Source of the DNA: Nemertoderma westbladi | Taxonomy: Eukaryota > Animalia > Xenacoelomorpha | Assembly (NCBI GenBank): GCA_032718475.1 | Contig: JAUCBJ010007004.1 | Span: 1-64,000 of the forward strand | Length of the DNA stretch: 64,000 bases | Direction: 5' to 3' | Shown: piece after piece, positions 6,295 through 35,259 of the stretch | Position numbering within the stretch: the first letter of the stretch is position 1 | Layout of the letters: every line of letters begins with the position of its first letter | Notes under the pieces: model-generated | Told to the model about the DNA's origin: nothing | Databases searched by the model: none | Seen by the model: only the letters and a program-made list of their open reading frames with translations | Position numbers and translations under genes: made by a program

Positions 6295-7235
6295 CTACTA
6301 CTACTACTAGGATCGGCATGCTGCATTGCAGCTGCATTTTTAAGAATGCTGTGCCGGCTTATCGACAAAATTGCACCGCCACAACTCCCTATCACCCATG
6401 ACATTTGCTAGATCATCTGCATCTTCAAGGCCAGTGTCCTTTAAGATGCGTCTCAAGAAAGTCATGGGCTGTCCACCATGCTTATTCACTCCATGAGGCT
6501 GCCAAAGTACAAGATTATGCACTGGCTGGTCCTCACGGCGAAAGCAATGTCCTGCAAAGCGGAGGCGATTTTGTTCTAGTGTCAAGCTTGGGGGAGCCAA
6601 TGAGACACCTCCAATGTTATATAGTGTCTGGTTGGAGATGTGTGCATTGTACTTGACACAATGAACCCGGCGTAGCATTCTTGTGAATGTGCCATCCAGA
6701 GATTTGGTGTCCTCAGCAGTTAGAGCCCAGCATGGACTCCCGTAGAGGAGTACTGGAACTACTGCTGCTCTAAATAATCGGACCTTAAGTTTCCGATTAA
6801 TTCTCGGTGACTTCCAAATCCTGGAAAGCCTATTCAAGGCTGCCCATGCCTTTCCCTTACGTATTCGAAGGTCCTCACCTGACTTCCGGATCCATGATCC
6901 CAGGTAACAGAAGTCGTCCACATGCTCAAGCATACCATCCTTTGAGCTTATGCTCATCCGATCAGAGACTTGCTGAGGACTTTCAAAGTTAATTGTCAAA
7001 ATTTTGGTCTTTCTGGAGTTAATAAAAAGACCAACACTAGAAGCAGCATGTTCTAATGAGCTGAGGAGCCGTTGGGCTCCCTCTAGTGATTCTGAGAGTA
7101 CTCCTAAGTCATCAGCAAAGTCTAGATCAGTTAGGTACTTGGCAGGATTTCCTCGACTTCTGGAGCCAGTAGGTGGAGTTATCATCACCCCATCATCATT
7201 ATGATGATCTAAGGACATGCGTAGAACGAAGAACG
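6295..7235 (-). mobile_element. 5'-truncated RTE/RTEX-like LINE (family A), RT C-terminus, (TAG)n tail
   Basis: RT motifs DLDFADD and FCYLGS; near-identical to 42471-43333; 13-bp TSD AATTAATGAAGAA at 6282-6294 and 7236-7248. Confidence 0.9.
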
Positions 7236-8748
7236 AATTAATGAAGAAGGGCAGATTACATGAGTTGATATTTTCATATAAACGTTGCCAAACCATGGCA
7301 CCAGATAGCAGACGTATAGGATTTAAGTATTATGGGCGTATGAGCTGCATATGTATAGTATGTGTATTGTATAATTTAAGTATGTGGAGCGAGCCACGAA
7401 GTTGGCGAAGCGTTATCGAACTGAACTGACACTGTTCAACAGTCTCCCACTAGATTCCCCCATTATTTTGCTTTAATCCGTTCCAGTTGAAAAACTTTGC
7501 AGATATATACTAGGCCCTACAGTACACCTTAGATGCCTTACAAAGGAGGATATTCCATTTTCAGTTCTCCAGAATGCCGTTAGGGGGCGTAATATTTGAG
7601 TCTCATTTTGTTATATAGTCCATACGAGCTGTCAGATAATATTTACTACAGTACAGTAGACCACACTTCGGCTGTTTCTAGATTTGTAATAAGTGTGACT
7701 TTTAGGTCCATTTGTTTGTTTATTTTGGACTATATATAATTATTATTGATATTTTTACTACTGTACAATTTGGCGTAAATAACAAAATTACGAGGGCTAC
7801 TTACTTTGTCTCCTAACGGATCCAAAGTCACCCTCGCCCTGTTTCGGAAAATAAAGTCCGTAAATATACAAGTCGGCTGAGGGAGATAAAGCTGAAAGTG
7901 ATTGTACAGTAATATTCAAGGGGATTTTGTAGCGGGAAAAGCCAGGCTTCGGCACGCGAGACTATTATATTAATTATAAGCCGTCTGGAAGCTTGCCACG
8001 CTGAGGGCGTGAGGAATCGTTTACAGAAAACGAAGACAAGAAAAGGAAGTGATCTGTGCAGTTTTCCATTCTGCCGCTAGAGTGCGAAATGTCCAAAAGT
8101 GAAAACCTTCCACCGTTTCCTTGATTTTAATCAGTTTAAGTTGAGATTTTGCATATACAGTAGTAGTATAAGGAGAACTATCTTCTTATACTACTTACAG
8201 TGCAGTACTGCATGTACGAGAAAACTGGCTGTTTCTTTGTGGAACGGTTCTCCACCTACACCTCTATATTTGCCGCTAGAAGTGGAAATATCTGAAGGTG
8301 ATAACGCTCTCTCGTTTATTAATTTATTATCATGCTAGACAGTAGACCATCCATTTGTTGGGACGGTAATCCATCAGCAATTCTCCAGTCTACAGCAAGA
8401 GGGCTGAAATTGAAACATTTCAGAAATGCCTAAAATAAAATCTAAGAGCCATTTCGCAATATTGTTTCCGTTCTTTCTGATTAATACTGGACGTACCAGG
8501 CACATATTCCAACCCCAATAGTTTATGTGAGGAAAAAAGCAGTCTGCAGTTAACCAGTCTGTCACTAGGAGGTAAGAGTGATTAGAGGACATTTGCTTAT
8601 ATTTTGCTATAATTTATAACATTAGACACATAACATATGTTTATATCACGTGCTGTGCGAATACCTCATTTCGTGTAGGCCTACTAATTCATATGTTTTA
8701 CGTTTTAAGTTTTTAAAAAGAAATCCGCTAAGAAACCTAATTAATTGA

Positions 8749-9200
8749 CTACTACTACTACTAGGTCTAGGTCGAGCGAACTCGGACAATGGAAATGAGA
8801 TCCTTCCAGGCTTCCCGATTCTCCATAGTTGTCGCAATTTCGTTTCTCCCAAGTTCAGTATCCCTTTCAAGTTGATCTATATATGTTATGGCCGGTCGTC
8901 CACGACTACGCTTTCCATGAGTTGGTTGCCAGAGAAGTAGATCTGGTATGACCTCGTCTTTACTTCGCTAGCAGTGCCCACTGAATCTTAATCTGCGTTC
9001 ACGGAGGGTGGTTGATACAGGCGGTATTGTACCATAAAGCTCGGCTTTTATCATGTGTTGTCTCCAGCTGATGTTTAGGGCTGCCCTTAGTAGTCTTGTG
9101 TAGCAACCATCAATTCGGTGTTCAAGTGATTTAGTCAGTGTCCAGGTCTCACCCCCGTATAAAAATACACTTTCAACTGTGGCTGACTGATTTCAAGATG
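8749..9200 (-). mobile_element. 3' fragment of RTE/RTEX-like LINE (family B)
   Basis: (CTA)n tail on +; matches 40551-40905 and the reverse complement of about 48290-48765. Confidence 0.85.
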
Positions 9201-12370: not shown

Positions 12371-14674
12371 TATTTGTTATAACTACTGTACATTAGCAAC
12401 TCAAAACTATACTATAACGAACATTATAATATCAAAACTATTACGAAATTAAACAATAGAATTGGCTCCGATTTTTCAACTCTCTAAAAATAATGAAATT
12501 TTCACTAAAAATACTGAGATTTTCACTAAATCCAATGCCAAAAACACTAAAAATAATCTCATAACTAAATAATTCATTTATATATTATCAATAAAAATTA
12601 TTCCAAATCCACTAAATAATGATTTATTACTAAATATGATCGATTATCACTAACAATAAATATATTATCGCTAAAATTAAATTTTTATCACTATAACTAT
12701 TCACTATTGATTTAGTCACTAAATATTCAGGGTGTACGTACAGTAGGCTAATCACTATTTTAATATGAATAGGCGATTGGCTACTGTAGAATTAGGTCCC
12801 ACCAGAGCAAAAAGGATCAGGTTTGTAAAGGGGCGGAACAGAGAGGCAGCGTTCGGGGAACCAAATCAACAAACTAATTTTAACATGAAGGTTAGTATAC
12901 AGTAGAGTTACGACCTGAAAAGAGTTACTTTAAGATTGTAAGTTTAAAGGGTAGGCATACAAAGTCGTTAGGTCCTGCAGCATTAGGTCCATTTTCAGGG
13001 AAAGGATCAGGTTTCAGAGATGTATTATTCTAACCTAAACAATAAGCAAAAGTCAATAACACACATTACAATTTATTTTTGCTAGAAAACAGTTGTAAAT
13101 AAAAATAGAATTGCTACAAAATATAATACAAATACAATAACCTAACAATGCAGGATCTAATAACTAAAGTACAACCGCATTACCACTTATAGCAGAAGTG
13201 GGCCCTAATTCGAAAGGTAAGAGAAGGAAATGATTACTTAGTGGGAAATAAATACAAGAAATCAAAGCCAATCGAAGACAATAGAAATGACTAGAAAGAA
13301 ATAGAAATATAAGCGAATAGAAATAGTTACTAATCAACTACTCAATAGTTGTCAAGTTCGAAACATTGCTCCATTAATTATATTCTGATGGGTACTGTAG
13401 TGGATGAGGCTACTTACTATATAATTATAGGGCTATCAGTATTTTCCTTTTTATCTGATGCAAAGATTCCTTCACAAGCCAGTTTTATTCGTTCTGCAGT
13501 TGCTGGACTATCGAGACGAAAGATACGTTGTTCTCCTCGGTAAGCAGCTATAGCTTCTTTAATGGCGAAAAATACACACGAGCTCAATAGAAGTGGCGCC
13601 TCACCAATACCCCTGGCTGACAAGAACCCGGCGTTTTTTATGGATCCATCATTTAGTAACTTGACATTAAAAACCCTGGGAATGTCAACCACTGATGGAA
13701 TCTTGTAGTCACTCAACGATCTTGTAAATTTCTCCCCTGAGCGAGAACACCAGATTGCCTCAGTTGTATGTAAACCCAACCCTTGAATGAACGCGCCTTC
13801 TATTTGTCCAATATCAATAGCCGGATTCAAACTGTGTCCAACATCCATAACAATATCTGCTGCTATAAACTTAAATTCACCTGTACGACAATCAACTTCC
13901 ACTTCACAGACAGCAGCTCCTGATGTTTGATGGTCCACAACTCTTCCATCATCCAAAGCATTAGGATAATGACCAACAGCTGATAAAGGTATCCTTGCTA
14001 GGTATGCGGCTTTGACCCACGATACCCAGTCACCCTCCACATTTCCCTCTCTGAATGGCCTCAATCTTTCTTTAAGTATCAAACTTGCATGCAATAAAGC
14101 TTCCCCGGCTAATTCTGTACACCAACTTCCGGCTGAGAGAGTTGCATTCGGGGTTTTATCTGAAGCAGTGTCACCAACTCTTACAATACCCGCATCCACA
14201 TCTAATGTATCGCTTACAATCTGGATCATCTTAATGTGGAGACCTTGGCCCATTTCAACACCAAGGTGGTTAATAATAACAGACCCATCTGTATATATAC
14301 ACACCAGGCAACTTGATTGAGCCATGCTATGTGAAGCAAGTAAAGAAACACCTAAAGCTTTTACAAGGATATAAATTCCTCGTTTGATATATTGATTTTT
14401 TGAATTAAAAGCAGAAACTTCATTTTTCCTTTTATGGAAATTGCTTGCCTGAATACAACGTTCCCAACATATTTGTGCATTGAATTCATCGATAATCTTT
14501 CCATTGTGTAAGTGGAGTACATCACCTATCTTGTTAAAATTTATAGCTTGTACTTCATAAGGTGGGATATTGCAGGCAATGGATATATCCTGAATCCAAT
14601 TGTCGACAAACCAACTTCCTCCAATAACTGATATCCCCCTCATTGCTCCATTACTTGGCCAGTTGCTTTGGCAA

Positions 14675-15869
14675 TGTTCGCGCTTTTGAAGACCTTTAGC
14701 AGTTTAACCTGCCAAAATTTATATGTCTTTTAGTTAATTGAAACACCTTTAGCATACGACAATATTTTATGCTAATACACAAAACATTACCCGAAGTCAG
14801 CCCATGCGCGATCATTCACCCGATGGATCTACACCCGGGAGGCTGAATTCGGCTGCTTAAATTTTATTATTGCAGTGTAAGGTTGCAGTGTAAACCTACT
14901 GTATTATTCGATAGATCGTTAATAATTAATTTCTGACAGATATTATTGGCTTTCGGGAAATATTAACAGTTCCTTTAGGACGTGGCGCTCTATCTATTTA
15001 AACAGAACTAGGACTTATACTAAACGCAACGATACTGCTTATGATTAAAGTATAAAGCGCATTCTTTAGGAAATACTTTGTTACCAATCACAATCATGCA
15101 CACTATTCTGCCGACCGTCAGTATATTTGATCACATATAAAGAGAGCAGCAATTGACTCATGTAGGGTCTGCTAAATAACATTAGATTCAATACACACCA
15201 CATTAATATAAATCGCAATTGTTATATATAGCCTGTCTCTCTAACCTGTAGTGTATCAAGAAAATTGGGAAATTTGGGTGATTTATCCGTATTATCCAAA
15301 GAGCAATATTTCCATCAACAAATAGATACAATTAATAACTGACGGTAAATAACAGTACAAACAATATGATTAATAGTGAGTTAAGATTGATTAGTTAGGT
15401 GATTTAAGTTAGGTAACAGTTTATACTTTCGATAATTTAAGCAGTTTTACTAGAGTTCTTCCCAAAAAGCCGGTGTTATGGCGAAAATGGGAACACAACA
15501 ACAGAATCATATAAAATCACATGACTAGAATGACTATACGAGTATACCAACTACCCTTATTCCCCGAAGCTCCCGTCCAACACAGAGGATGAGCAGTGAG
15601 ATAGGAAATTCAGTTCAGTAGCTCTGGGATAGGTCGAAATCAACGCCCACTCAAATTCTATTGGCCGATACGGACAGCAAGGCTAAGGCAACCTCTCTAA
15701 GCTAGTTGGCCGATTAAACTGAGCCCAGATATCTCCGTACAGCACATCAGCCAATAAGCTGGTAGCTTGCACTATTTTAGTTATAAATCCCTTTGAGAGT
15801 ATTCTAGCGACTGGGGGGGAACTGGCCAGCAAAGGCAAACGTATCAGTTATCCCACAAAAGCTTTTACA
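14675..15869 (-). repeat. 3' LTR of the BEL/Pao element
   Basis: Matches 36143-37337; I saw three transitions between the copies. Confidence 0.96.
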
Positions 15870-15947
15870 CCGCTCCCAGAAAATGGGATTTAAGTCTATA
15901 AAATATACAAAATCACAGTTTCTAAAATATAAAAATACTCTAAACAG

Positions 15948-18900
15948 TTAGTCTTTCTTGCGCGGACGGCGTTTACGCAGTTTTTTAAAGCTAGCAAGAG
16001 TCCTTTTCTCTTTGGGGCGAGCCACTTTACGAGGAGGGCTATAACTCCTGGGTGAAGGGTGCAATATGATTGCATCAGAAGGTATGGGATTACGATCGGT
16101 ATATCCGCCGGTCGAAGTACCGGGTTGATTGACATCAACGTCCGGGGAGAGGGGTCTAACGGCTTTGAGAGCTCGTTTCAAGACAGCCGCTCTTACGGGT
16201 TCTTTACGAGTGGTCTGAACGAGGGCCGTGGGTGGACCATAGGCAGTTAGAAACTTCCTTGGTTTAATGGTTCTTTCCAACTCGCGTTCGCGGGCTCTGT
16301 ACTCGTAAGGCCGTCGATATACTTCTTGTAACTCGGGGTGTGAGTTGACAAATAAGTCTCCATAGGCCGGATCTTGACGGATAAAGTTTATTAAGTTGTA
16401 CGAATTGATGTCACTCGGATTAATGCTCCTGAGAAATTTGCGTACATATTTGGTTGAAATACATTCTCCAACACGCTTCAATAGTTCATAACTTGATAGG
16501 CGCGATTTCTGCTCGACGGAGGCAAACAAATAAGGATGGAACGCATAAACTCCTTCGTAAGCGCGTCCAGGATAATAGCGATGGCGTGAATCACAATGTA
16601 AATCAGCGTTCGCTTCCCAAGCTCTGATATAACGTAGTACAATCATTTCATCTACGCTCTCTAAATCATGGTTAAAGGGACAATCAAAGCTGGCGTGTCC
16701 TTTTAATTGACAATGATGGCATTGAGTCATAAATTGGGGGCAGACAGCAAAAATGTGCAAATTATTAAGCCGACAATATGCACAATAGATTTCCATCGAC
16801 GGTTGCTCGTGGAAGTAGGAACAAAGATCGTTGGTGTCCATAGACGTAATATGGTCTCTCGATGCGCACAGCCGACAACGTTGTCTAGAAACATAATTGG
16901 CATGGCGATAATCATACGCAGTAAGACACTGGGGACCTTGATACCATTCCAATATGTAGTCGCTATCGCTACTCCGAGACGTGGGGGGCTGAATCTCTTC
17001 AGATTCTAAACATATGGGTTCGTCTTCCCCTTGTATAGTTGAGGTAGGCGTGGCTGTCTCCTCAAGTGGACCTACCGTCTGAATTTCCACGACAGAATAA
17101 CCTGTGGGGATCCGAGGTCTTTGGATAACCGAGGAATGCAGGTTCATTATACAAATGTCTTTGAAAATAGCAAATCCAGCGCTATCTAACTTCTCCGCAG
17201 CCGAGTCTCTTAAGCTGAGCTTGGTCAAAGCGCGGTCTTTGAATTGGCTATCCATGTTGCGAAACGGGGTTAAAAACCGGCGGAAACATTCAAAGCGGAT
17301 GAATTTATTATGTTCATCTAGCTTAGCGAGTTTGGTCCCAAGGATTAATGGATGGGCGCGTATAGTACGACTGCACACATCGGCTAGCCAACCGGAAAGT
17401 GCGGTGTTTTCGAAGATCGTGTAGATAGCTAAGGAGGGGCGGAATGGAACACTCATGAAGCTATACACGGCGCCAGGTGCGGTCAACGGTCCGTCAAAGT
17501 ATAATCGAGAATAATGGTCTCCGTATACTTGTTGATAGTTGATGGGATTTCCGACCTTGAAATTCCACCCGTATTCCTGAAAGGCAAGATGTCCGATGGA
17601 AGTTCGTTGCACCTTTGTAATGTTGCTAGACGCATTAGCATACATGGTGCGAAAGAAACCTCGGCCTTCGGCCCAAGGAGCTATCAGCTGAGTATCCACG
17701 AAAGGATAGGGGATATTCTCCATATTCCGAAAGTCGTTTTGGAGATCTCCGTAAACAGTTGAGCCGATTTTAATGATTCTTTCGTTGAATAACATCTCGA
17801 GAACGGGCTGGGGTAACATTGATCCATCGATACCCATGGCCGGTTTGCGTTCGGTGTCAATGACGTAACGCTGCGCGAGTTCGAATTGTCCATGTCGGAG
17901 ATTCCTTTGCGTTTCGGTGAGAGTCTCAAAGGAATAATCGATCACGTCGGAACACGCTCGCGTAAACACGTGAGTGGAGCCAGCTAATCTGCGTATGTGT
18001 ATCATGCGCGTAGTTCCTAATTCTCCGATTGGAACGCTACCTTCGTTATCGTAAGTAACAACGCCATACATCTCAATGATATTAAGAGTTTCATTCCACT
18101 CTTTGGTGGCGTTCTCGAGGGTCATCCCTACCGGATGCCACAAGGTGGCGCATTGATTAGCGTCAGGGAGATCACTATACTTCATATATCGAGTGGTATA
18201 CGTCTCCACATTTCCATATCTTTGGATTTTCTCCTCCTCGAATAATACATCTAGATTCCAATGGACTAATCGAGTTTTAATAAATCCATCGAGATTATAA
18301 GGAGGTTCTGTATCCTTCTCTATTCGAGAAACGTTATATGGTTTTCGAAATGAGTTTACCTTTACTAATTGATCCAGATGTTTTTGCAATTGTTCGAGTT
18401 CGACAATGTCCAGAGGATTTATTAGTGGTAGAAACTTTAAATTATGCGTCGGATCTTCTGGTTTTACCATATAATATTGAGTCAGATTAACGTAATAAGG
18501 GTGATCTTTAATTCCATAAAAAGAGTTCTGTAAAGGTCTAGCGCGTATGTTGACATCGTGTACCATACGACGGACAAGATCCGCTCGATTGTCCGGAGGT
18601 TCAACGAGTATACCGTCAACTCGAGCGGCCTCGATTGGCGGACGCTGTAACATAGGAGCGTCAGCGATAAGATTTTGCGATCTTATGCTGATATCAAGCG
18701 GTTGGGGTTGTATCTTTGCGAAAAGTTTGTCTCTGAAATGCGGAACCATCGAGGGATGACGGACGGTTTTAGAGTAGAGATCGGTTATGAGTATCTGAGC
18801 TTCGGGTTGGGCTAAAGCGGCTTCTTCTCTCTCATCCATTTCCGTATGTTTCTCCTCTAGTTGATTTTCCTCCGCTTGTTTCTGTAAGCGTTCTTCTAGA

Positions 18901-20201
18901 AACTCCTGTAGAGAATACGTACGTCCAAGCTCGATGTCCTCTTCGAGGTTTTGGATTTCTCTATCAAACTGCGGCAAGGCTAGCTCTTTCACCGATTGGA
19001 CCTGCTGCTGTAATTTACGTTTCTCTAGAAAATCCTGGGTTCCCTTTCCGATTTTCTGTCGGATGGCGTCTAGAGCGTTTCTGATGACACTCTCCTCGAC
19101 TTCCGTGGCAGGTTGTATCGGAGTTAATCCTGGCCGATTGTAAGGATTAAATGGGGATGTTAGATGCCCGCGTCCCAATCCGGTTAGATAGGATGGTCGA
19201 ATATCTAACGAACCTACCGCTGGAACACCACCGATTAACTGCTCGGGTAACACCAAATCTTTGAACAGTGAATATAACTCGGGAGAATCAGTGATACTGT
19301 TAGGATCAAGAGTTTGAGGTCTCACGGGGAAATGGGGAGGCCTGACCGAGTATTCCGGAACTCTGATCATGGGTTTATTTAGCGATCGTTTTAGACGGGC
19401 GATCGTAGGTGATACGTCGAACAGGTTTCGCTCGAAACTCCCGTAAGTATAACGCGTAAAACTGTGTTTAGCACAACGTCTCCGCGGATGTTTATGTCTT
19501 TCCGTTTGCTGGTTAGGTCTAGGACATGAGTCACAATAATACCAAAGACGTACGTCCTGCAGAGGAAACGCGGGTGATCGTTCTCCAGTTTTGCAATACT
19601 CTTCCATTTGTTCAAAGCTGTCCGGGACAACAGGCAGTGGACGATCTGCGGTAAGATACATCATGGTGAAATAGAGTCGTTTGAGTTCTACCATGGGATC
19701 GTGATGTATACCTTGAGGATATCGAGTCTCTAGGTTCTGTTGACTGGCAATATTGAGATAGGTTTCTCGCAAAAATTCCAAGTAGTCGTTGAAGTTGATA
19801 CGCTTATCGGGTTCTTCAACGTTTTCTCTGTCGAGTAGGTTGCGAATAGAGTTCTCGTGTTCTATTCTCGGTTTATCATTACGATTCCGCTGGGCATGAT
19901 ATTTAAATAAAACCATTTCCCTTTCGGTGTCTACATCATCAGTATCATGTAAATCGGTAGGATGGCCGGTAGTTAAGAAGTCCATATACGTACCATTACG
20001 ATTCGTATAGCGAGCGGTGAATTTTCTATAGTCCAATTCACGCGTAAGTTGTTCTTGGGACATCGGCGGTTCGATATAACGACCATCGTCCTCCGTAATA
20101 GTCGGATCGGCTTCACCGCGTATCAAGCTATCCACAAACGCTTGTAAAGGTAGAGTATATCGCTCCCTGATACCAAGGTCATCTTCTATCAATTCCGTCA
20201 T
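15948..20201 (-). CDS. Accessory ORF3 of the BEL/Pao element (1417 aa): coiled coil, DEDDy/RNase D-like 3'-5' exonuclease, three CCHC knuckles, basic C-terminus
   Basis: The ORF is intact and lies between pol and the 3' LTR. Exonuclease motifs are VVTYDNEG (ExoI), LFNERIIKIG...YGDLQNDF (ExoII), FVDTQLIA, SIGHLAF..YG..FK and YTIFE (ExoIII-like). Knuckles are CRLC-x4-H, CAYC-x5-H-x4-C and CHHC-x4-H-x4-C. It ends KKLRKRRPRKKD. No signal peptide or TM segment seen, so it is not env-like. Confidence 0.8.
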   Translation of the reverse strand: MTELIEDDLGIRERYTLPLQAFVDSLIRGEADPTITEDDGRYIEPPMSQEQLTRELDYRKFTARYTNRNGTYMDFLTTGHPTDLHDTDDVDTEREMVLFKYHAQRNRNDKPRIEHENSIRNLLDRENVEEPDKRINFNDYLEFLRETYLNIASQQNLETRYPQGIHHDPMVELKRLYFTMMYLTADRPLPVVPDSFEQMEEYCKTGERSPAFPLQDVRLWYYCDSCPRPNQQTERHKHPRRRCAKHSFTRYTYGSFERNLFDVSPTIARLKRSLNKPMIRVPEYSVRPPHFPVRPQTLDPNSITDSPELYSLFKDLVLPEQLIGGVPAVGSLDIRPSYLTGLGRGHLTSPFNPYNRPGLTPIQPATEVEESVIRNALDAIRQKIGKGTQDFLEKRKLQQQVQSVKELALPQFDREIQNLEEDIELGRTYSLQEFLEERLQKQAEENQLEEKHTEMDEREEAALAQPEAQILITDLYSKTVRHPSMVPHFRDKLFAKIQPQPLDISIRSQNLIADAPMLQRPPIEAARVDGILVEPPDNRADLVRRMVHDVNIRARPLQNSFYGIKDHPYYVNLTQYYMVKPEDPTHNLKFLPLINPLDIVELEQLQKHLDQLVKVNSFRKPYNVSRIEKDTEPPYNLDGFIKTRLVHWNLDVLFEEEKIQRYGNVETYTTRYMKYSDLPDANQCATLWHPVGMTLENATKEWNETLNIIEMYGVVTYDNEGSVPIGELGTTRMIHIRRLAGSTHVFTRACSDVIDYSFETLTETQRNLRHGQFELAQRYVIDTERKPAMGIDGSMLPQPVLEMLFNERIIKIGSTVYGDLQNDFRNMENIPYPFVDTQLIAPWAEGRGFFRTMYANASSNITKVQRTSIGHLAFQEYGWNFKVGNPINYQQVYGDHYSRLYFDGPLTAPGAVYSFMSVPFRPSLAIYTIFENTALSGWLADVCSRTIRAHPLILGTKLAKLDEHNKFIRFECFRRFLTPFRNMDSQFKDRALTKLSLRDSAAEKLDSAGFAIFKDICIMNLHSSVIQRPRIPTGYSVVEIQTVGPLEETATPTSTIQGEDEPICLESEEIQPPTSRSSDSDYILEWYQGPQCLTAYDYRHANYVSRQRCRLCASRDHITSMDTNDLCSYFHEQPSMEIYCAYCRLNNLHIFAVCPQFMTQCHHCQLKGHASFDCPFNHDLESVDEMIVLRYIRAWEANADLHCDSRHRYYPGRAYEGVYAFHPYLFASVEQKSRLSSYELLKRVGECISTKYVRKFLRSINPSDINSYNLINFIRQDPAYGDLFVNSHPELQEVYRRPYEYRARERELERTIKPRKFLTAYGPPTALVQTTRKEPVRAAVLKRALKAVRPLSPDVDVNQPGTSTGGYTDRNPIPSDAIILHPSPRSYSPPRKVARPKEKRTLASFKKLRKRRPRKKD

Positions 20202-20244
20202 ATCTGCTATCTGAGTTTATTAATATCAATATGAGTTAATTTTT

Positions 20245-20398
20245 TAGGCAAGCGGGCGTCGCTGCCTACTAGGCTTTTGCCCCCGGACAGTGGGTTTCTC
20301 AGCGCCGATGTACCGCTGTCGCAGTGTTTACGCCAACATGTAGCAACAGCACGACAACGATAACCGGCACAAGTCCCACCACTGTCCGTCCCAAAGGC
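20245..20398 (-). other. Structured RNA element: a ~125-nt extended hairpin plus a 24-nt hairpin upstream of ORF3
   Basis: On -, the pairings are CGGACAGUGG/CCACUGUCCG, GUGCCGG/UCGGCGC and UAUCGUUGUCGU/GCGACAGCGGUA, with many G-U pairs. A second stem UAGGCAGCG/CGCUUGCCUA follows. Confidence 0.7.
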
Positions 20399-23300
20399 TT
20401 GAATCCACTTGAGGTTATCTCGGTAGAGTTAGGGCTATTTTACAATTGCGATTAGCTACTGTAAACACACTTTAGTAGTAACATTCACCTATAAACGCAC
20501 AAATTCCATACAATCATTACTTACTGCACACATGCATGCCATTTGTCCGTTAGTCAGTGTCTTCCAGAATGTCACGTTATTACTATGTATCCTTGGATAC
20601 TAATAGTGCTCTATGTATACTCTTATGCTACGCAATGGGGCAAGCTTTTATTGTTCTTTTAACTTGCTTCTAATTCTAGCGTGGGTGTTGCCATGGTGAC
20701 ATTATGGAAAACTAGCGGTAGAATTAGGGTAATTCTCATGCATACAGATCTGGGATGTTATTTAATAGTAATTCTTTAGTTGTCAATATCCTCTTTATGC
20801 ATGATTTTATAAATTTTATCGGCTATTGACTATATGTTGGAGATTCTCGCACTCTAATACACTCAATATGAATCTCCGCTCCCATGATCTATTAATTACT
20901 GGAATTTTGGGAATGTTATAAATTGCACAAAATGACAATTTATGAAATCCATTTGAATATGAATTTAAATTTATTCCCGTGAATTTTATTATTTGATGTT
21001 AAATTGATACAAATTTTATTCCAGAGCATATCTGGGGACTTAGGATCCTTAATTCTATAAAATAGTCCTTCTAAGAATATGGGTAAATACTGCGATATCT
21101 TAATTGACTAGAAATTTTAAAGGATCTGGATTTTACAGATTTTAATAAATATTAAATTAATATTTAGGATGGGCACCGATTTATTCCAGAACTTGTCTGG
21201 GGACGTTAACCACTGATTCTAGAATTTGTCTTTCAAGTATATCGGTGGGTGCCACGATATCTTAATCGACTAGAATTACAGATGGTCAAAAAATTTAACA
21301 GATTTGTTTGCGATTTACGCTACTGTTAGAGGGACATCACGCTACTATATGTATTATTTGTTATAAGGTAGAAGAGCAATATCGCACGAAGCAATGTCAG
21401 TGCGAAGAGGCAAGTCGTTTCCAAGGTCTACCCAGAGCTTGGTTTAGCCGAGACACGAGGATCTGAACTTTGCATTCCTAATACTCTGCCTACCAATAAT
21501 ACTTAAATATAGTAGTGGCTTTATTGTACTTTAAAAAGTACGGACATTTCATCTTACTGTAGTCACGTATTTATAATATGATACGGACAGTAAGGGAAGA
21601 GAAAAATAATTATTTCTCGCCGTCGCACTAAATATATATTATAGTAATTATGTACGTAATAAACACTAATATATTGCACTAATCTACTAAATAATCCCTA
21701 AAATAACATTTTACTAAATAAAATTAAATAAAAACGATTATAATAACGTACATAATAACATTTACATATAAAATGTAATAAAAACAGATAAAATAATATA
21801 GACATACACCCACTCCAGACGTACTACGTTGAAGAGTCCCTAGATGTTTGAGGTATTAGGGAGGTGGTCGTGGGAAGGGTTTCTTGCCTTCCATAGTTTC
21901 CGGAGAGTTCCCTGTCTCTTTCCAGCAAACATAAACGACCAACTGGGCGATTGAGTTGTTGCGTCTCAAAGATTATCCCGGGTTTCTTGAAGTTACGCCG
22001 CATTACGACGAGTTCTACTGAGCGCACTAGACCATCCTCCGAGATGTGCGTCTCGATGATACGACCGATCTGCCACCGTCTACGTGGAAGGTCCGGATCT
22101 ACAATAAGGACCATGTCTCCGGCGCTGACATTTTCCTGCTGCGCAAACCACTTAGTTCGAAGTTGTAGTGTGGGCAGATAATGTTTCTCAAAATGGTCAG
22201 CGAAACGACGGGATAGCAACTGCATAAGCTGCCAAGTTCGACGACAGTATTCATCTCCATCGGCAATCTCGGATTGTGGGAGCATGGCTACAGGTTTCTT
22301 AAGTAGGAAGTGCGCGGGTGTTAGCGCTTCCAGGGAGTCGAGACTCGATGAGACTGGCATAAGCGGTCTCTCGTTAAGATAGGCAGCGATTTCTTCCATT
22401 AACGTCCGTAGAAGTTCGTCGGTGAGATATGCGCGGCACGGCACTATAAAGTGAAATGCGGTCTTGACACTTCGAATTAATCTCTCCCAACTTCCTCCCC
22501 ACCAAGGGGCGTCGGCGGCGTTAAAGGTCCAGCTAGACGCCGTTATCCGTAGCTGGTCGTCCACCTGTCTTTGATTCCAGTCCTTTACGTAAGCCTGAAT
22601 TTCGTTGTTGGCACCAATGAAGTTCGTTCCCTTATCGGATCTCATCGTATTGCTAGTGCCGAAACGAGCGATCTGTCGTCGTAAACATAAGACGAAGCTG
22701 TTAGTAGATAGATCGTTCACCATATCGAGATGGATAGCTCTACAAGTCATGCAGACAAAGATTACACACCATCTCTTGATTATAGTTCTAGCACGATACA
22801 CTTCAATAGGGCCAAATAAATCCACACCAGTATTAGTAAAGGGTGGTTCATAAAAGCTTACTCGTTCCCTAGGTAATTCTGCCTCTCGCTGTGTTAAAGG
22901 CCTACTGAATACTTTCCTACAAGGTATGCAGTTCCTAAGAACTTGATTCAGAGCTCTACGCGGTTTATGAAAATAATAGCGGGTTCGAATTTCGCTAAGA
23001 ACTCGTTCTCTACCAGCATGATACAGTTTACTGTGAACATCTACAATCATCTTGATTTGTACTTCAAGATTACTAATGAGTATAGGGAATTTAGTATCAA
23101 AGGATAATGGGGCGTTTGTAAGCCTTCCTCCAACACGTATTAACCCATCTATCATTGTGCTAGAGAAGCGATCCCTTAAGCGCATCTGCGGATTTCTTAA
23201 TAGCAGAAAATACCTATCGGAATCCTCATAGCATTGTAGGAGTCTCAGTAGCTGCTTATTAGTTTCTTCATGCTCCTGGTAGCTGATCTTCTCCTTTAGA

Positions 23301-26300
23301 AACCGGTCTGATATCTTGTACTTAGGTAGATCTTTAATAACATGAACTTGCGCAGATGTCACTGGAGCAGGATCATTAGTGGTCTGCGTCCTGGAGTAGT
23401 GATGGTGAAAACATCTCTTTAAGTATGTGACGGCTTTACAGAGACGATTCCAGGAACTGTAATGATGCAGTGCTCTCTGCAGCAGGGGTGAGATTCCTTG
23501 CGAGACGTCTGGTATCCCCGATTTCCAATCTCTGTCTCTAATTTCCACAACAGATTTGTTTGTGGCGAGGGATTGTGGATCCGAAGTATCGTTTGCGGCA
23601 GTATGTAATACAGATAGATCGATTGTCGGTTTAAATAACTTCGATTTACTTGTCCGAATTTTGGGTTTGACTTTCTCCGCTCCCTTGGCTTGTCTAATCT
23701 CAGCCGTAGTAAGGTGAGGAGGCCATTCATCCTCTTCCTTGCTCAAGAAGTCGGGTCCACCCAACCAGTCAGGGGTATCTATCAGTTCCTGTGGAGTTGC
23801 TCCTCTGGAGGCGATGTCAGCTGGGTTAATCGTACCAGGGCAATGTCTCCATTGATCTATCGTTGTGCGACTAAGAATAATGGCTACTCTGTTAGTAACA
23901 AAGACGCTGAACTGACAGACTTCATTCGTTATATATTCCAATACAAGTAAAGCGTCGGTCCAATAAACAGTTTTCTCCAGTGGATAATCGATCTGTTCTG
24001 TTACATTCCGTCCGATAGCTGTAGCGTATAAAGCTGCTTTTAACTCCGCCCGAGGAACCTTAAGCTTGTTGTTAATCAATGCCTTAGAGGTAACCAAGGC
24101 AACTTTGATTCCATCCGGAGTTTCGACTCGCAGGTATGCTACTATACCGATTCCCATATCGCTGGCATCTCCAAATACATGGAGTTGATAGGAATACGTA
24201 GGGAGAACATGGCCAAAATATGAACGAGAAATTATAAAGTTCTCGATGGCAGGTAGCGAGTCCTCTCATTTCATCCATTTCTTTAATAGTTCTCCCTTGA
24301 GTGGATCGTCCCACGAGTGGTTTTCCAGCCACATTTGTTGTACTAAACTCCGAGCAATCAATATAACTGGGCTAATAAATCCCAAGGGATCGAAATAAGT
24401 GCTCAGAATACTTAAACAAATCCGTTTGGTCCGAACTGGATTATCTCGCTGTTTTAACTGAAAAAATAGGATGTCTCTTTCTGTGTCCCACTTCAAGCCA
24501 AGCGTCTTGGTTTCCGGAAGATCATCATGTATTAAGTCGAGATCTTTTGATCCCCGGTCTTCTACCGATATTGCTTCCAGAAACTCACGGGAGTTGCTGG
24601 TGAACTTCGTCAATCGAAATCCACCTCTTTTCAAACACTCAACCGTTCCTTTCGCGACATCAATGGCTTCCTTTACTGATGGAAGGGACTTTAAATTGTC
24701 GTCCATGTATATGTCTCGTTTGATGTTATCTATCACCTCTTTAGAGAAGGCATCCCTGTTGTCATCCGCAGTGGTACGGACCACTGAGCAGGCGTTTGAA
24801 GGGCTTGATATAATCCCAAAGGCCTGGATGGTCATCCAATACTCTACCGGTTTCTGGTTGAGATCTCCTTCAGGCCACCACAGGAATCTTAGGCTGTCTC
24901 TATCCCGATCCAACGCCTTGACTTGTAGGAACATTCCTTCTATATCGGAGGCGAACGCGATGGAATATTGTCTTAATCTTAACAGTATTCCCAACAAAGA
25001 TTGAAGCAAGTTGGGTCCTGGTAACAATTCGGAATTAAGGGATTGACCCATATATAGGGCGGAGCCATCAAATACGACCCGTACTTCATGGGGTTTACCG
25101 GGTTTGGGAACATAATGATGTGTTAGATAATAAGTCCTTTCAGTTATTGGAGTTCCTTCCGGTACTCGCTCCGCATATCCCTTTGTGATAAATTTCTTCA
25201 ACTGAGTTTGGTACATTTCCTTAGCTGAAGCGTTTGCCGTAAGACGTCGATGTAATTGATTGATTCTTTTCTCAGCCAAGGGTCTGTTATTTATAAATCT
25301 GGGTTCACGTTTTCGGAAGGGTAGTCCGATTTCATATCTACCTTGATCTTTTAAAAAACGTGTGGTTGTTTCCTGGATTTGCTTGGCTCTTTCTTCTTCT
25401 ATCGACAGGGCTTTGTCGTATGAATTGGGTTCTACCAATTCTTGGGTAAAGAATCGTACGGCGAGTTCGTCCCGAGTTCTAGCGTTGTAGCGCTCTACCT
25501 CGTCATTAAGTTCGTCATTATAAATAATGGATTCCGTTGGGCGAATCAGTTGACATAGGTTCGTTTGGTTTTTCCAAGTTTGGTTTTCGGTAAGTAGATC
25601 CATTGTGTTCTCTTCATCGAAGAGTTGGTAGATGTCGTCATTATCTGAGGAGTATGGTGTTCCCTCAGTTGGTTCGTCCACATCGCTGCTTTCCTCTTCC
25701 CAATCACTTACCTGATCTATTTGTTCGTGTGGCATTCTCTCTTCGAGAGTTCTACGGGAAGGGCCAGTAAAGTACCAACCTACTCTAGTTCTTACCGCAT
25801 AGGTTTGCAGTGGTTGTGGTTGAGCAGGCCGTTTCTCTAATGTTTCGAGCGCCTCGTGCGCGTTTTGGCCGATAAGTATTTGCACTCCATGATAATCTGT
25901 CTGGAATCGAGGTATCTTAAGATGTTGGACGCTCTCATCTTCGTCCCAATTATAAAGGTCTGCTTGAGTAGTAGCAAAGTTCTTTATAGCAACCATTTTT
26001 ACTGACCTTATACCTTGTGTTCCTAACTTATCCTGGGGGGTGGACAACACACCTACATAGTAATCTGCCGTTAGGGTAGATTTCCAAACCTGCATAATTC
26101 CTGACATATTCAATTTAGTCCGGAACTTGGGTTGTCCAGTAAAAATATCTTCGGCTAGTTCTTGATCGATGAATGTTCCTGTGCTGCCGGAGTCAAGGAG
26201 AGCGTTCACTATGTAGCTTTTTTTAAGACCGTGAACTCTTACCTGAACTACAGGAAATTCTCTTATTCCTACGTTGGAAGCTGGAGCTTTCCAAGATGGT

Positions 26301-27957
26301 TGTTTGGCGAAAGTAGTTTGGGGAAACTCATCGTTGATGTCCTTTTCGTGAGTAAGTGCTCGATACACCGCGGTGTTTATTAGATAACAGGATTCATTGG
26401 CGTCGGAGAATTCGTCAGTATAGAATCCTTCCATCTCAGACTCTTGATCGGTGTCATTTACGTCACTAAATTGGACATGTAGTTCGGGCTCACTTACCTG
26501 ACTCTGTTTGTCTCGTTCAAACTCACTGTGTAACAAGATGTGATGTTTCGCGCCACACTTTTCACACTTTAGGTCGGAGTAACAGGTTTGCCGTTGGTGT
26601 CCTGGTCTGAGGCAATTATAGCATAACCGCTTGTCCCACACAACGGTACGTCTGTCGATAAGTGATTTCTTTAGAAATTCCGCACACGCACTCAAACGGT
26701 GGGTCCCGTCGCACAGCGCACAGTTAGGTTTTATGTTACTTATTTTACCTTGGGTAGTCTGATGCACTCTCGTTCTTTCTTCGGGCTTTCTTCCGCGCAT
26801 TCTACTAGGAGACTGAGGAGGGGTCTTAGCAATCTGTTCTCTCCTATTGTTGGTTCGAGCCTTGTATTTACTTACGTCCTTTGAGGTTTTGTCAACATAA
26901 TAAGATCGGTCTGTATCTTTCCCGCTGTCCTCTTCTTGGGAAGCTTGGCTTTCGCCGTCGTCAGTGTAACACACCGGTGTTACCCTTCTCCTAGAAGTGG
27001 GTTTCTCACTTACCTTATTTTCCGATGTTTTCTCTCTGGACTGCTTGATGAGTTGTAGTTTGACTTCGCCATCTAAGAAAGACATGAGATCAGCCATGGT
27101 AGGACTTCGTCGTTGTTGTTCATTCATGTACAACACTTTCTTGTCCCAGCGTGTACATACTCCACCCTTTGGTAAAGTAGAGACTACGGCTCCAATAACC
27201 ATGGAACTCTGATATTCGTGCGACTTACCTAACCAGTCCAGTTGTCTACAGATCTCTTGAATTTCATCGGAAAACTCTATAATCCCACTACTAAGGAAGT
27301 GTCGGGGGGCTACTAATTTGGCGTACAAATACTTAGCTATGTTATCCTTGTTACCATACCTGATGTTTAATGTATCCCAAACTTGTCTTAATCCTTCTGG
27401 ATGTCCAATAAACTTTAACGCCATTAACTTGGGAGGTCCTTCCAAGCACTTGATGAGGAATCTAAGTTTCTCTCCGTTAGATAGTACAGAGTTCTGTATG
27501 CTATCTTTGTAATATTCGTTGAAAGGTAACCATTTCATCTCATCTCCATTGAATTTGACGATCTCTCCCACTTTGACAGCTTGGCGGGCTTCTGTTCTAG
27601 CCATCTGACGCGTAAAGCTTTCTTGGGCCATCGTGTTATTTAATATCGAATTATCGGTATATAAATTTCTCGGATCTGTTGAAGATATATAAACAGTTAT
27701 AGATAATCCAGTAACTCAATAATATAGTATAATAGCTGACAGTCAAGTTACAGAACTGCACACAGACCTAACACAACTGACAACTGCACAACCTCCTACC
27801 TACCGTACCTGTCCAACCGGTAGGCCTACACCTGATACAGCAACACTAGTACTGTACTGTAGTTTTTCCTTTCTTGTACTACCGTACTATCCCAGTGGCA
27901 TGGCCTACTATATGTCTCACACAATTTCCCAACACCTCCCACAGTTTTATAAACTTT

Positions 27958-28285
27958 TTAGTTTTCAAATCCATATCGCTTTGGGGGCCTAGACATTCGG
28001 CCTGAACGCGTAACGACCGTGGGTGGAGCAACCCCTATTGGTATCTCATCTTCATCATCTGTAGGGTCTATTTCATCGTATGATGTTTCATCATCTGTAC
28101 TATCAACCTCCGTTTCCGATTCGATATCAATTACCCTTTCAATTTCATTATTCGTATTTAATGCTGACTCAACCTGATTTTCTGCATGCGAAACTTTCAT
28201 CGACTTTCTAACATCTTGAAGGTGTCGGCGTATTCCTTTCACTATCACTGAACGTTCCTGTACTTGATCGACTCTATGAGGTCCC
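27958..28285 (-). pseudogene. Out-of-frame integrase C-terminal remnant (GPY/F-like) of the nested element
   Basis: Reads GPHRVDQVQERSVIVKGIRRHL...TRSGRMSRPPKRY, a typical integrase tail. Confidence 0.75.
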
Positions 28286-30484
28286 TTTTTCTACAAAAAC
28301 AGGATTAGGGTCTATGCTATTGCATTGATCACATTCTGTGCATATTTCATTCACTAACTTCTTTGGCACAGTTCTAGAATTTAATTCTCTATCAACGTTA
28401 CATAACTGCATGGTTCTGTCTACACCTTGGTGCGCTAATTTGTGTAAATATGTAACACGCTGACGATTGTTTACATTCAATTCCTGTATATCTCCCATTG
28501 CAGCGAATGCATCATTATTGGTTTCTTTTACATCCTTATCACGGCCAAATTTCAACCAATGTGATGGAATTCTAGTTAACGTGTCCGATAAATTTTTCGC
28601 TGATTCAACCCGATGCGGTCGGATTTTTAATTTATATTCTACTATGATCTCGCTCAGTATATCCAATCGACGCTCAATGAGCTTTCTCGCCTGACCTTTA
28701 GTTCGAATTCTGTGTGTGTCGAAAATAACAGCATTCACCCAGCTATACACGGTTGATGAATCAATAAAGAGATTAACTACTTTTATGTTCCAATCCACTG
28801 CCATGTTAATTCCCTCAATAACCGCATCTAGTTCTGATACATTTATGTGTTGGTTGTCACTTTCTTTGCGAAGCCATGATCTGTCTTCAACTACAACTCC
28901 GTCTATCTTTATCAATGCTCCCTTTGCAATTGAGCTGGCGTCAGTCCATATATCTGCGTGATCTGTAGTACGAACAACCCACTCTCCTTTTACAGGATCA
29001 TTGTGACATACATTATCGATCGTTTCATTAACCAATTGTTGTAAACCATCGCCTATATAACTGTCCCATGTTACGCCCGCACTACAGTGTTGTAACCATG
29101 CACATGCTGGTCTTAACCATCCTCCCACAGGATAGTGTCCCCGAAGCTGTCCACATATCGAATGTAACTCTCTCCTAGTGGTTTTTTCTGGAACTTCTGG
29201 TAACTTTTGACTCCGTCTCCAATACAATTTATTGTTTTGTTCATTTCCACAAATTTCTAGACCGAGAACCTTACATCCATTTATTACTGGTTCAGCGTCT
29301 TTTGAAATTAACCCATAATCTTTCAGGTGACCCCTTACAGCCTCTGTAGGTATTTTATTCGTGTTTACATATACATCGTCTCTGAAGTTATCTGTGGAAC
29401 TTTGAACCTTTTCATCTTTCTTTAAAACTCCTTCAACAATACGGTCCATAATCTTTGGACCAGGACCCAACCCAAATCCCATCCTAGTAACGACATATCG
29501 CTTTCCTTCATATACAACAGTTTGGTATGATCGTAGTTCTTCTTTAATATGAATTTGCATATATGCCCAACGAAGATCGATTACAGCGGTTTGTTCTCCC
29601 ATCCTCCGCCAGACTCTTAATTTTTCATTGCAGGCAGCAGCTTCACGACCAGGTGCATTGACGACATGAGAATTCAGTTCTCTATAATCTAAGATCGGCC
29701 TTATTCGTTGTTTTTTCTCCTCATATTTTGCCATGATTGGGATGGTTCCCTTGACTTCTCCATGAATTTCCGGAGAGTATGGAACTATCCATTCTCGCTC
29801 GATCCACTCTTCCATAGCAGCTTTATATAATTCGGTGTGCTCTGGTCGTATGCGATACTCAGTCATTCGATTATTAAGCTGAGGTGGCGTTCCGTCTTTC
29901 CACTTCCACTCTGCAGTCCAATTTTTTCCATCATATACTACGCGAAAGTCTGAATCTTCTATAATAATATCGGACTGATTGGGTGCTATTTTCTTAGTTA
30001 GTGATACTTCGATATTGACTTGTTCCTTCTCTTCAATATCTAGCTGTTTAACCTCAGCCCCTACACAACCAAATATGATTGGAGACAACGTTTCAGATCC
30101 AATATGTCGGACCACATCGATTCCTAACATTACTGCCCCTTCACCCAACAATTTTTCTACCACCAATACTGGCCATGTAAAAAGGAATTCAATTGAATTA
30201 ATGGCAACGAATGTTAATTCAACCTCTCCTATCACTCCACAATGCGATTCACCGTCTAACATCGTAATTTCAGATGATCTAATACATTTTTTCACTTCTA
30301 TTCCATTTTGTTGACACCATAGTTTTGACACTAAACATCTCGAGCAGCCAGTGTCAACCAATGCGGGAATGACTATATTCATTCCTTCAAGTTGAATGCC
30401 AACTAATGGGAGATTCCCATTGTGGGGGAAACATCCATTGGCTGCGATGAATCCCCCATTCCGTTTCCCGAAGGTTGCCGCCAC
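28274..30484 (-). CDS. pol: Pol of the nested element (PR-RT-RNaseH-IN zinc finger), -1 frame relative to gag, truncated
   Basis: LVDTGC, RPILDYRELN, IDLRWAYMQI, FRDD, WTDAS, H-x3-H...C-x2-C, then a stop. Confidence 0.9.
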   Translation of the reverse strand: MAATFGKRNGGFIAANGCFPHNGNLPLVGIQLEGMNIVIPALVDTGCSRCLVSKLWCQQNGIEVKKCIRSSEITMLDGESHCGVIGEVELTFVAINSIEFLFTWPVLVVEKLLGEGAVMLGIDVVRHIGSETLSPIIFGCVGAEVKQLDIEEKEQVNIEVSLTKKIAPNQSDIIIEDSDFRVVYDGKNWTAEWKWKDGTPPQLNNRMTEYRIRPEHTELYKAAMEEWIEREWIVPYSPEIHGEVKGTIPIMAKYEEKKQRIRPILDYRELNSHVVNAPGREAAACNEKLRVWRRMGEQTAVIDLRWAYMQIHIKEELRSYQTVVYEGKRYVVTRMGFGLGPGPKIMDRIVEGVLKKDEKVQSSTDNFRDDVYVNTNKIPTEAVRGHLKDYGLISKDAEPVINGCKVLGLEICGNEQNNKLYWRRSQKLPEVPEKTTRRELHSICGQLRGHYPVGGWLRPACAWLQHCSAGVTWDSYIGDGLQQLVNETIDNVCHNDPVKGEWVVRTTDHADIWTDASSIAKGALIKIDGVVVEDRSWLRKESDNQHINVSELDAVIEGINMAVDWNIKVVNLFIDSSTVYSWVNAVIFDTHRIRTKGQARKLIERRLDILSEIIVEYKLKIRPHRVESAKNLSDTLTRIPSHWLKFGRDKDVKETNNDAFAAMGDIQELNVNNRQRVTYLHKLAHQGVDRTMQLCNVDRELNSRTVPKKLVNEICTECDQCNSIDPNPVFVEKGTS
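30397..30469 (-). promoter_or_regulatory. -1 ribosomal frameshift signal: G GGA AAC plus pseudoknot
   Basis: The slippery heptamer (30469-30463) is in the correct gag frame, within the gag/pol overlap. Stems UGGGGGA/UCCCCCA, AAUGGGA/UCCCAUU and GCCAAU/GUUGGC follow it. Confidence 0.8.
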
Positions 30485-31359: not shown

Positions 31360-31390
31360 AACGATTTAGGTTAAACAATAGATCAGTATA

Positions 31391-31402
31391 GCCCGGTTAG
31401 CT
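31391..31402 (-). promoter_or_regulatory. Primer-binding site complementary to a tRNA 5' end (Lys/Ile-like)
   Basis: The + strand reads GCCCGGTTAGCT directly against the 5' LTR. Animal tRNA-Lys begins GCCCGG(C/A)TAGCT and tRNA-Ile(AAT) often begins GGCCGGTTAGCT. Confidence 0.65.
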
Positions 31403-34400: not shown

Positions 34401-35259
34401 TTTATAAATCGTTTGAGTTGATTTATAATAGATATATACCCGTTTAAAAAGGGTTTTTTGTCAATATTTGAAATAAATGTTATTATTTCTGGGGGAATCA
34501 CTACACAGAAGCTGTGCGCTCTCAGTGAAGTGTTACTTATTGAGACACTAAAACTGATAATTCTAATTTACCTAAGTTACTTAATACTACAAATTACTTA
34601 CGATATGGGTGAGATTAATTCTCTAATTAAAACACAACAAAATATTACGTACGAAATTTTTAGGGTAATTTTACAGGAAGTCTACAAACCAGCCTAACAA
34701 AGGGTTAGAATTCTGGTTATTACAACGGACAGGGTACTACGGTATTTGAAATAATAAGTAGTAGTAAATATATTGCACTGTCCAGATAGGAAAATACCAC
34801 CGCCTGACGACCTATAACCGTATCGCTATAGGTACTACGTTATGTATCACGGAGTGTTCCTACCTAGAAGTTAATAGAGCTAGCGAATGTGCCTATCAAC
34901 CACTTTACAACACAAATATACTGCCCACACTAATTATTCCGGAAAGCACTGTACACTAAACCCTAAATTAGGTACAAGTACCGGTATAACAAATAATCAG
35001 TAGTTAAATATACTTGAACAGTTAAAAGAACCACGGCATCTGCTGGAGTGACTGAAGCACAAAATCTCCAGTCTTTACCTACGCCGAGCAGCCCTGATGT
35101 AGTACCGGGGTTAGTTTAACTATAACGGTATGTATAACAAGCACAATTACTGTAGGAATAAACTTGGGGACATGAATGTTGCGAATAATCGCATAAACTC
35201 TGAATAATAAATATTACGCTACCCGTACAGAATACTCAAACAAAAATACAAACCAAACG

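Follow-up and report, generated by a model that had tools for sequence, protein, structure and literature searches.

What might a retrotransposon gain from a large, intact gene standing where an env gene would be expected? This question is raised by a 64,000-nt stretch of Nemertoderma westbladi DNA (the window; assembly GCA_032718475.1, contig JAUCBJ010007004.1, positions 1 to 64,000 of the forward strand), in which a young BEL/Pao long terminal repeat (LTR) element carries an additional open reading frame (ORF), ORF3, between pol and the 3' LTR. An earlier reading made from the DNA letters alone (the sequence-only reading) had taken ORF3 for a DEDDy exonuclease with zinc knuckles that serves as a small-RNA counter-defence system. 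Our results indicate that ORF3 is a real, constrained accessory gene with a layout like that of the trypanosome enzyme RND (TbRND) and a D-E-D-E site. The counter-defence headline is not supported; a part in processing the element's own RNA or primer explains the findings no less well. By analogy, we put at roughly 0.4 the probability that ORF3 is an RNase D-like 3'-to-5' exonuclease with knuckles, predicted to trim the element's own RNA or its intermediates.

ORF3 runs for 1417 amino acids (aa) without a stop on the minus strand, at 20201-15948 (ATG 20201-20199, TAA 15950-15948), while the plus strand of the same interval is closed and holds no ORF. It lies inside the LTRs, starting 1622 nt past the pol stop and ending 78 nt short of the 3' LTR, and the intact frame between pol and the purine tract described by the sequence-only reading is thereby borne out, its strand being the minus strand. 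The motifs also stand where that reading had placed them: VVTYDNEG begins at aa 714 (D718, E720), KIGSTVYGDLQNDF at aa 811 (D819) and FVDTQLIA at aa 834, and an ExoIII-like Y927..E931 follows. Tests on sequence, profiles and models delimit an RNase D-like (DEDDy) nuclease domain at about aa 695-950 with two insertions (17352-18119). Further downstream, motif and Pfam searches place three Cys/His knuckles at aa 1109-1174 (16680-16877), as claimed, but only the third (at 1161) is a canonical C-x2-C-x4-H-x4-C; the second contains an x5 spacing, and the first departs from the pattern with C-x2-C-x4-H-x9-C. The single Pfam match on ORF3 is a weak zf-CCHC_3 (E=0.59). A charged helical, coiled-coil-like stretch at about aa 418-460 (18822-18950) agrees with the claimed coiled coil as far as a crude heptad score can tell, and the basic, candidate nuclear localisation signal-like tail (15951-16040) has by composition 15 K/R in the last 30 aa. 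No transmembrane segment was seen in ORF3, in agreement with the sequence-only reading (peak 19-residue hydropathy 1.24), and an env identity was rejected for this reason. About 1100 of the 1417 residues fall outside the two recognised domains. In the N-terminal region there is an extra Cys/His cluster, C223-x2-C226, H236, H238, C243 and H246 (aa 223-246; 19466-19535, minus strand), which could be a zinc site.

Is the domain a DEDDy nuclease? Sequence comparisons make it highly probable that the nuclease-like region of ORF3 has the DEDDy fold. Among 18950 NCBIfam models two match the domain, both of them RNase D (E=0.0095 and 0.046). Comparison of ORF3 aa 120-1319 with 1.84 billion representatives returned a single match (E=6.6e-6), the 648-aa protein P0002, which aligns to ORF3 aa 775-942 at 29% identity and then again at the knuckles. 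P0002 has a nuclease domain with D62/E64, D130 and Y229..E233 as well as three knuckles, and in a PDB search these knuckles hit nucleocapsids of retroviruses (best E=1e-4) as well as Air2 (E=0.064). In the Atlas, the best three rows for P0002 are all PF01612 clusters; the first is a euglenozoan cluster with PF01612 and zf-CCHC (score 0.86, a lead only) and the second an EXD1-like one (0.77). When a profile of ORF3 and P0002 was compared by hhalign with an RNase D alignment of 23 sequences, the result was E=1.1e-5 (82% probability, 61 columns; reversed control 0.53); an EXD-like alignment gave E=3.9e-4 (reversed control 0.18). When a two-sequence hidden Markov model (HMM) was used to rank 497 ORFs, 82 of which were labelled DEDDy, all 25 of the top 25 were DEDDy, compared with 5/25 for the reversed HMM; 38 ORFs from 8 loci picked by the same HMM had been excluded beforehand. 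NCBIfam, hhalign, the HMM ranking and P0002 thus all speak for the RNase D-like DEDDy domain with a D-to-E change in ExoIII that the sequence-only reading had described.

An AlphaFold model guided by ORF3, part of P0002 and 41 bacterial DEDDy sequences reached a predicted local distance difference test score (pLDDT) of 59 overall, with 84-92 at ExoI/ExoII and 76-85 at ExoIII. Its best DEDD match has Z 14.5 (root-mean-square deviation, rmsd, 3.3; 169 aligned), E. coli RNase D follows with Z 13.4, and Nibbler, Egl, Exd1 and WRN, members of the same fold group, match at Z 11-12, the rows being nearly tied and the model alignment-guided. The guided model is compatible with a DnaQ-like fold and is no proof of it. 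At the sequence level ORF3 has no assignment to any of Egalitarian, Exd1, Nibbler, EXD2 or WRN exonuclease. The best sequence match is to bacterial RNase D and Rrp6, through the K...D...P.FVDTQ stretch at ORF3 aa 798-843; an HRDC profile built from 23 bacterial sequences did not match ORF3 (best domain E 3.7), a comparison of low sensitivity. The ExoII context of ORF3, KIGS..D, is nearer to the EXD/WRN-like KVGV..D than to the KVFHA..D of RNase D.

Relatives of ORF3 are few. There is no close cellular homolog among the 1.84 billion representatives. In a 5.8-billion set no homolog was found with ORF3 aa 600-1300 (779-2480 aa only) or with alignment A1, a search of low sensitivity since it missed even P0002, and P0002 aa 30-270 retrieved P0002 itself only. 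Scans of viral contigs, metagenome contigs, genome contigs and plasmids gave nothing relevant, PHROGs gave weak, unnamed matches only, and the N-terminal parts of ORF3 and P0002 align, by local alignment alone, no better than shuffles.

Regarding the active site, D819 aligned to the ExoII Asp in 30/30 and 35/35 settings, and on these alignments the ExoII assignment is secure. Y927/E931 aligned to the ExoIII Y..D in 7/30 and 30/35 settings. ORF3 departs from the ExoIII pattern Y-x3-D: the Tyr is kept and the Asp has become Glu (Y927-x3-E931), and the same Glu is found in P0002, where D62/E64 aligned to ExoI in both settings tried. D-E-D-E is therefore common to ORF3 and P0002. A different ExoI, the word IDTE with D783-E785, was suggested by one alignment and rejected: it removes two core strands, and in RNase D the counterpart of this word is the 'IDP' strand.

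Further evidence on ORF3 comes from other copies of the element. The stretch is present, in whole or in part, in six public runs from 4 studies, one of which may be the source sample. Four runs show a repetitive and diverse family: in 4/4 runs many divergent contigs cover each of the 30 bins from ORF3 across the spacer to pol, none of the contigs listed spanning the region. The ORF is thus present in other family copies, as the sequence-only reading had anticipated. Selection was tested at 17390-18070 (681 nt) in run X3 with all 29 variants of at least 20% share, shares being depth-weighted contig sums. Within this part of the nuclease domain 23 variants are synonymous and 6 non-synonymous, 22 are at third positions, and the ratio of non-synonymous to synonymous polymorphism (pN/pS) is 0.08-0.11 (p<1e-7); for the 24 segregating variants the counts are 22 and 2 and pN/pS is 0.03-0.04. 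The nuclease-like part of ORF3 is under strong purifying selection across the family, and evolution is not neutral, again as anticipated. Such selection means that the protein matters to the element. Codons 718, 720, 819, 927 and 931 have no variant of at least 20% share and, since the catalytic codons are without listed variants, E931 is the family state. Outside the nuclease domain 5 sites were seen, 3 synonymous and 2 non-synonymous. Some contigs have joints that skip parts of the element: a joint at 17029-19839, seen in run X5 only, points to internally deleted copies with most of ORF3 gone, and joints at 21959-23672 and 23859-25635 point to 1.7-1.8-kb pol deletions in several runs.

Genes of this kind have a precedent. 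DEDDy ORF3s were published from the bdelloid rotifer LTR elements Juno1/2 and Vesta2/5 and from Athena/Terminon (Rodriguez, Kenefick, Arkhipova 2017, PMC5408684), and the precedents are restated in the accessible parts of PMC5718144, PMC6431247 and PMC6338049. The rotifer Gypsy-type and Penelope-type cases named by the sequence-only reading are hence genuine; a nematode case, which it had also named, was not found, and 'BEL', 'Pao' and 'nematode' each have 0 occurrences in the accessible text of PMC5408684. The Discussion of that paper, as far as accessible, describes DEDDy exonucleases as previously unreported in retrotransposons. Judged from published descriptions, the rotifer proteins resemble ORF3 in being encoded by RNase D-like DEDDy ORFs that stand where an LTR element would have env, without a transmembrane segment and with an altered tetrad, and the accessible text shares the proposals of 3'-end processing and silencing. 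The differences are that the rotifer tetrad is DEED whereas that of ORF3 is D-E-D-E, and that for the rotifer proteins a Cys-His-Cys motif is described instead of three knuckles. Moreover, the selection tests in the available part of PMC5408684 concern env-like and GDSL ORFs only, which looked neutral, whereas here the DEDDy domain is strongly constrained. No DEDDy precedent in BEL/Pao was found in the open full-text literature, a search that extended neither to the transposon databases Repbase, GyDB and Dfam nor to papers under subscription, figures or supplements. ORF3 is likely the first BEL/Pao example of a DEDDy ORF3.

The closest architecture of known function is that of TbRND, a DEDD exonuclease in which four CCHC fingers hold on to the RNA being trimmed (PMC7797062, accessible text). 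In TbRND these fingers occupy the place after the exonuclease where HRDC would otherwise stand, and the predicted layout of ORF3 is alike; between the TbRND structure (PDB 7c42) and the guided model the match has Z 11.4 (rmsd 3.7, 190 aligned, 9% structural-alignment identity). According to the same text, TbRND is an enzyme of the cell that works in mitochondria; its DEDD tetrad is intact and its four fingers come after a 28-aa linker (PMC7797062). In ORF3 the knuckles number three and begin some 160 aa past the domain, and a 690-aa region precedes it on the N-terminal side. The two architectures are likely convergent.

How would ORF3 be expressed? A non-coding spacer of 1622 nt with 24 ATGs (20202-21823, minus strand) separates it from pol, and for this reason ORF3 would need its own message. 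Just ahead of the ORF3 ATG the spacer contains AG dinucleotides and a branch-like word, a possible splice acceptor. In the accessible text, the rotifer DEDDy ORF3s are said to derive from spliced messages (PMC5408684). Run X4 may be RNA; of the 76 joints in its contigs, none among the 15 listed ends at the ORF3 start.

A further property of the element lies in its priming region. A primer binding site (PBS) complementary to a tRNA is usual in BEL/Pao. Here the PBS position (36132-36142, minus strand) has no TGG start of the tRNA type, and all 11 of its nucleotides, the 11 directly after the 5' LTR at offset 0, are the exact complement of LTR nt 447-457. This candidate self-primer (36881-36891, second copy 15413-15423, minus strand) overlaps TATAAA. 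An 11-nt match at offsets 0-3 arose in 76/20000 shuffled LTRs, and 3/2240 leader positions have such a match. Further leader segments, nt 17-26 and 33-42 (36101-36129, minus strand), can pair with LTR nt 983-1003 (36335-36355, minus strand), which adjoins the only AATAAA, or form a hairpin; the first 45 nt of the leader hold three matches of at least 10 nt, and 0/5000 shuffles reach three. Pairing probability is 0.83-0.96 solely under an assumed RNA start at LTR nt 447, and folding predicts that the leader would switch between LTR pairing and a local hairpin with the RNA start position. In sequence terms the element has a Tf1-like self-priming signature in place of a tRNA site. Tf1, Tf2 and Tj1 share this arrangement, their PBS adjoining the LTR and being the complement of a segment within it (PMC4600332, PMC6317226, PMC5341516, accessible parts). 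These are Ty3/gypsy elements (Ty1/copia cases being predicted), unlike BEL/Pao, and in our case the candidate primer overlaps TATAAA.

Taken together, an RNase D-like trimmer of the element's own RNA is favoured because TbRND is the closest architecture of known function. It is also favoured because constraint that acts copy by copy is more readily explained by a step in the element's own cycle than by a diffusible suppressor common to all copies, and because non-tRNA priming features suggest own-RNA ends in need of processing. In such a mechanism the zinc knuckles would hold single-stranded RNA and the nuclease would shorten the element's own RNA, or intermediates of its replication, from the 3' end. 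The protein might be made from a separate, probably spliced message and might enter the nucleus. The knuckles may feed an RNA tail into the active site as in trypanosome RND, and the protein may be catalytically active in spite of the Glu in place of the ExoIII Asp. Candidate substrates would be oligo(U)/oligo(A) tails on element RNA, the 3' overhang of the self-primer and extra bases at cDNA ends. A bolder and rather unlikely version of this mechanism is that BEL/Pao independently built a trypanosome-RND-like D-E-D-E enzyme, its nuclease supplied with RNA by CCHC knuckles, which removes host marks of decay or silencing such as oligo(U)/oligo(A) tails, trims piRNAs or matures the self-primer.

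A number of observations weigh against an RNase D-like trimmer, and those on the fold are considered here together with the alternative of chance motifs in a domain that lacks the DEDD nuclease fold. Taken singly, none of the sequence searches passes a curated cut-off: TIGR01388 scores 15.2 bits against a cut-off of 298.95, PF01612 is undetected by Pfam in ORF3 (E=0.2 in P0002), and a PDB sequence search with the nuclease part of ORF3 and P0002 gave no match. The two-sequence HMM (A2) had no match in one set of 5 bacterial genomes and 8 matches, at chance level, in another of 301; the DEDDy signal is judged faint because the blind search of the 301 genomes gave only such matches. D718/E720 aligned to ExoI in only 12/30 and 18/35 settings. 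In the structure prediction proposed by the sequence-only reading, unguided single-sequence AlphaFold failed (pLDDT 34), and the guided model does match DEDD nucleases, but in a circular way, since its guiding alignment was selected for aligning all motifs and the DEDDy structure matches are not independent; two core strands are not formed in it. Weak individual E-values and the failed unguided fold are what chance motifs would give. Nevertheless, chance is a very improbable explanation, as four partly independent tests converge on one family with negative reversed controls, and the distant homolog P0002 preserves the motif order. We regard the DEDDy signal in the sequence as real yet faint.

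If the fold is accepted, catalysis is the next point at issue. The ExoIII Asp, which is Glu in ORF3, is in TbRND a direct ligand of the A-site metal (PMC7797062, accessible text), and Egalitarian retains all five residues, yet they are dispensable, while Exd1 is inactive (bioRxiv 10.1101/2025.08.03.668247, accessible part). The domain might accordingly bind RNA uncut, with knuckles, coiled coil and basic tail localising or packaging a ribonucleoprotein as Egalitarian and Exd1 do. The shared Glu of ORF3 and P0002 and the many residues beyond the two recognised domains would suit such a pseudo-nuclease adaptor; we hold it to be unlikely, given that two proteins of such low identity agree at all four acidic positions and at the Tyr, that these five positions are free of common variants in the family, and that D-to-E is conservative. 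In the Klenow exonuclease the same D-to-E change reportedly leaves much of the activity, although searches found no confirmation. Other points touch the role in the cycle. The copy in the window has 5 private differences per 681 nt from nearly all others, 4 non-synonymous and 1 synonymous. They outnumber the expectation from the LTR age (0.25%) and their pattern is neutral, which suggests recent copying without constraint; ORF3 may have been supplied in trans. In Tf2 the element's RT performs the primer cut (PMC4600332, PMC6317226, PMC5341516, accessible parts), and primer trimming by an extra nuclease is therefore not generally needed. The counter-defence idea is that ORF3 weakens silencing, either by trimming, degrading or sequestering piRNAs, siRNAs or the precursors of these, or through competition with host factors of the Nibbler/Mut-7/EXD1 type. 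It gains from Nibbler and Exd1 being among the structural matches of the guided model, from the EXD1-like Atlas cluster, from TbRND trimming small guide RNAs (PMC7797062, accessible text), from the repetitive and diverse family, from a basic tail that suits nuclear silencing, and from the rotifer paper, which raises the possibility that in Juno1/2 a DEDDy ORF3 goes with higher copy number (PMC5408684, accessible text). A freely diffusing suppressor would, however, also aid copies without ORF3, and this predicts weaker constraint than is seen, so that we consider counter-defence doubtful. Finally, ORF3 could be a captured host gene, a passenger without function for the element, and the one homolog found, P0002 on a 9449-bp contig, would agree with this. 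The excess of synonymous segregating variants largely refutes it for the nuclease domain, and the complete coverage from ORF3 to pol in four runs and the lack of a close cellular homolog also speak against it; its probability is minimal.

ORF3 is of interest beyond this locus. Nuclease genes in the env slot are in print for rotifer elements only, without a function or a selection test of the DEDDy ORF in the accessible text (PMC5408684), and the present case likely extends them to another LTR superfamily. ORF3 is a soluble, intact and assayable candidate for a retroelement RNA-trimming enzyme, on which a replication step and counter-defence can be told apart. If it is an RND-like enzyme, this would be the first animal LTR element with its own anti-RNA-surveillance enzyme or primer-maturing nuclease, and unexplained nuclease ORF3s of retroelements would become testable.

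The host element lies on the minus strand at 14675-37337. It is assigned to BEL/Pao, as the sequence-only reading had done, because DUF1759 (E=2e-12), Peptidase_A17 (E=5e-13 and 6e-15), Integrase_H2C2 and DUF5641 (E=4e-20) mark this group; the order is protease (PR), reverse transcriptase (RT), RNase H (RH) and integrase (IN). Its 1195-bp LTRs (5' LTR, TG...CA, 36143-37337; 3' LTR 14675-15869) have 3 differences (0.25%) and are flanked by the target duplication TTGCC at 37338-37342 and 14670-14674; the copy is young. Next to the 5' LTR is a leader of 2260 nt with internal repeats (33883-36142), in which Rfam gave no match up to E=1 and a tRNA scan was also empty. The first ORF (gag region) has its 5' part at 31661-33882, assigned by position and without a Pfam family, and is cut by a nested Gypsy-type element at 27677-31660. 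Pfam places gag (DUF1759, knuckles), protease and RT at 24266-27676, ending at an in-frame TGA (24268-24266), and RNase H (Peptidase_A17), integrase and DUF5641 at 21824-24265. A short purine tract (8 nt, 15870-15877), read from the sequence, stands immediately before the 3' LTR. All of these features are on the minus strand. This copy is thus broken elsewhere, by the nested Gypsy in gag and the TGA between RT and RNase H, two points that the sequence-only reading had not mentioned. No relatives of pol were found in scans of viral contigs and metagenome contigs. Without the nested element the copy measures about 18.7 kb including the 2.3-kb leader, which is large for the BEL/Pao group, and its gag region is well over 1000 aa, the first 740 aa without a Pfam family.

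The nested element (DUF7047) has identical 258-bp LTRs and a GATCC duplication, and encodes gag and PR-RT-RH, the integrase core being missing. Its PBS position has no TGG and is presumably complementary to a tRNA 5' end. In run X1, 36 contigs have a loose end at 27675 that resembles the far flank of this element, and other BEL/Pao copies are likely, from such contigs, to be without the insertion. The BEL/Pao element itself interrupts an apparently intronless xanthine dehydrogenase/aldehyde oxidase gene of about 1270 aa, left in two pieces on the minus strand (37333-39876 and 13417-14703). Elsewhere in the window, a gene with long open frames at 1136-5799 (plus strand) has a WD40 - Roc - COR - CARD-CARD order, an innate-immunity-like ROCO architecture, and RT fragments occur at 6340-7329 and 43094-47648. 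Tandem arrays (15/22, 36, 16 and 57 bp) are found among 50600-52430, 55171-55860, 60166-61400 and 63172-64000, and a 2.7-kb foldback element with long inverted arms at 47247-49974 has sequence in common with 8756-9184 and 40552-40913.

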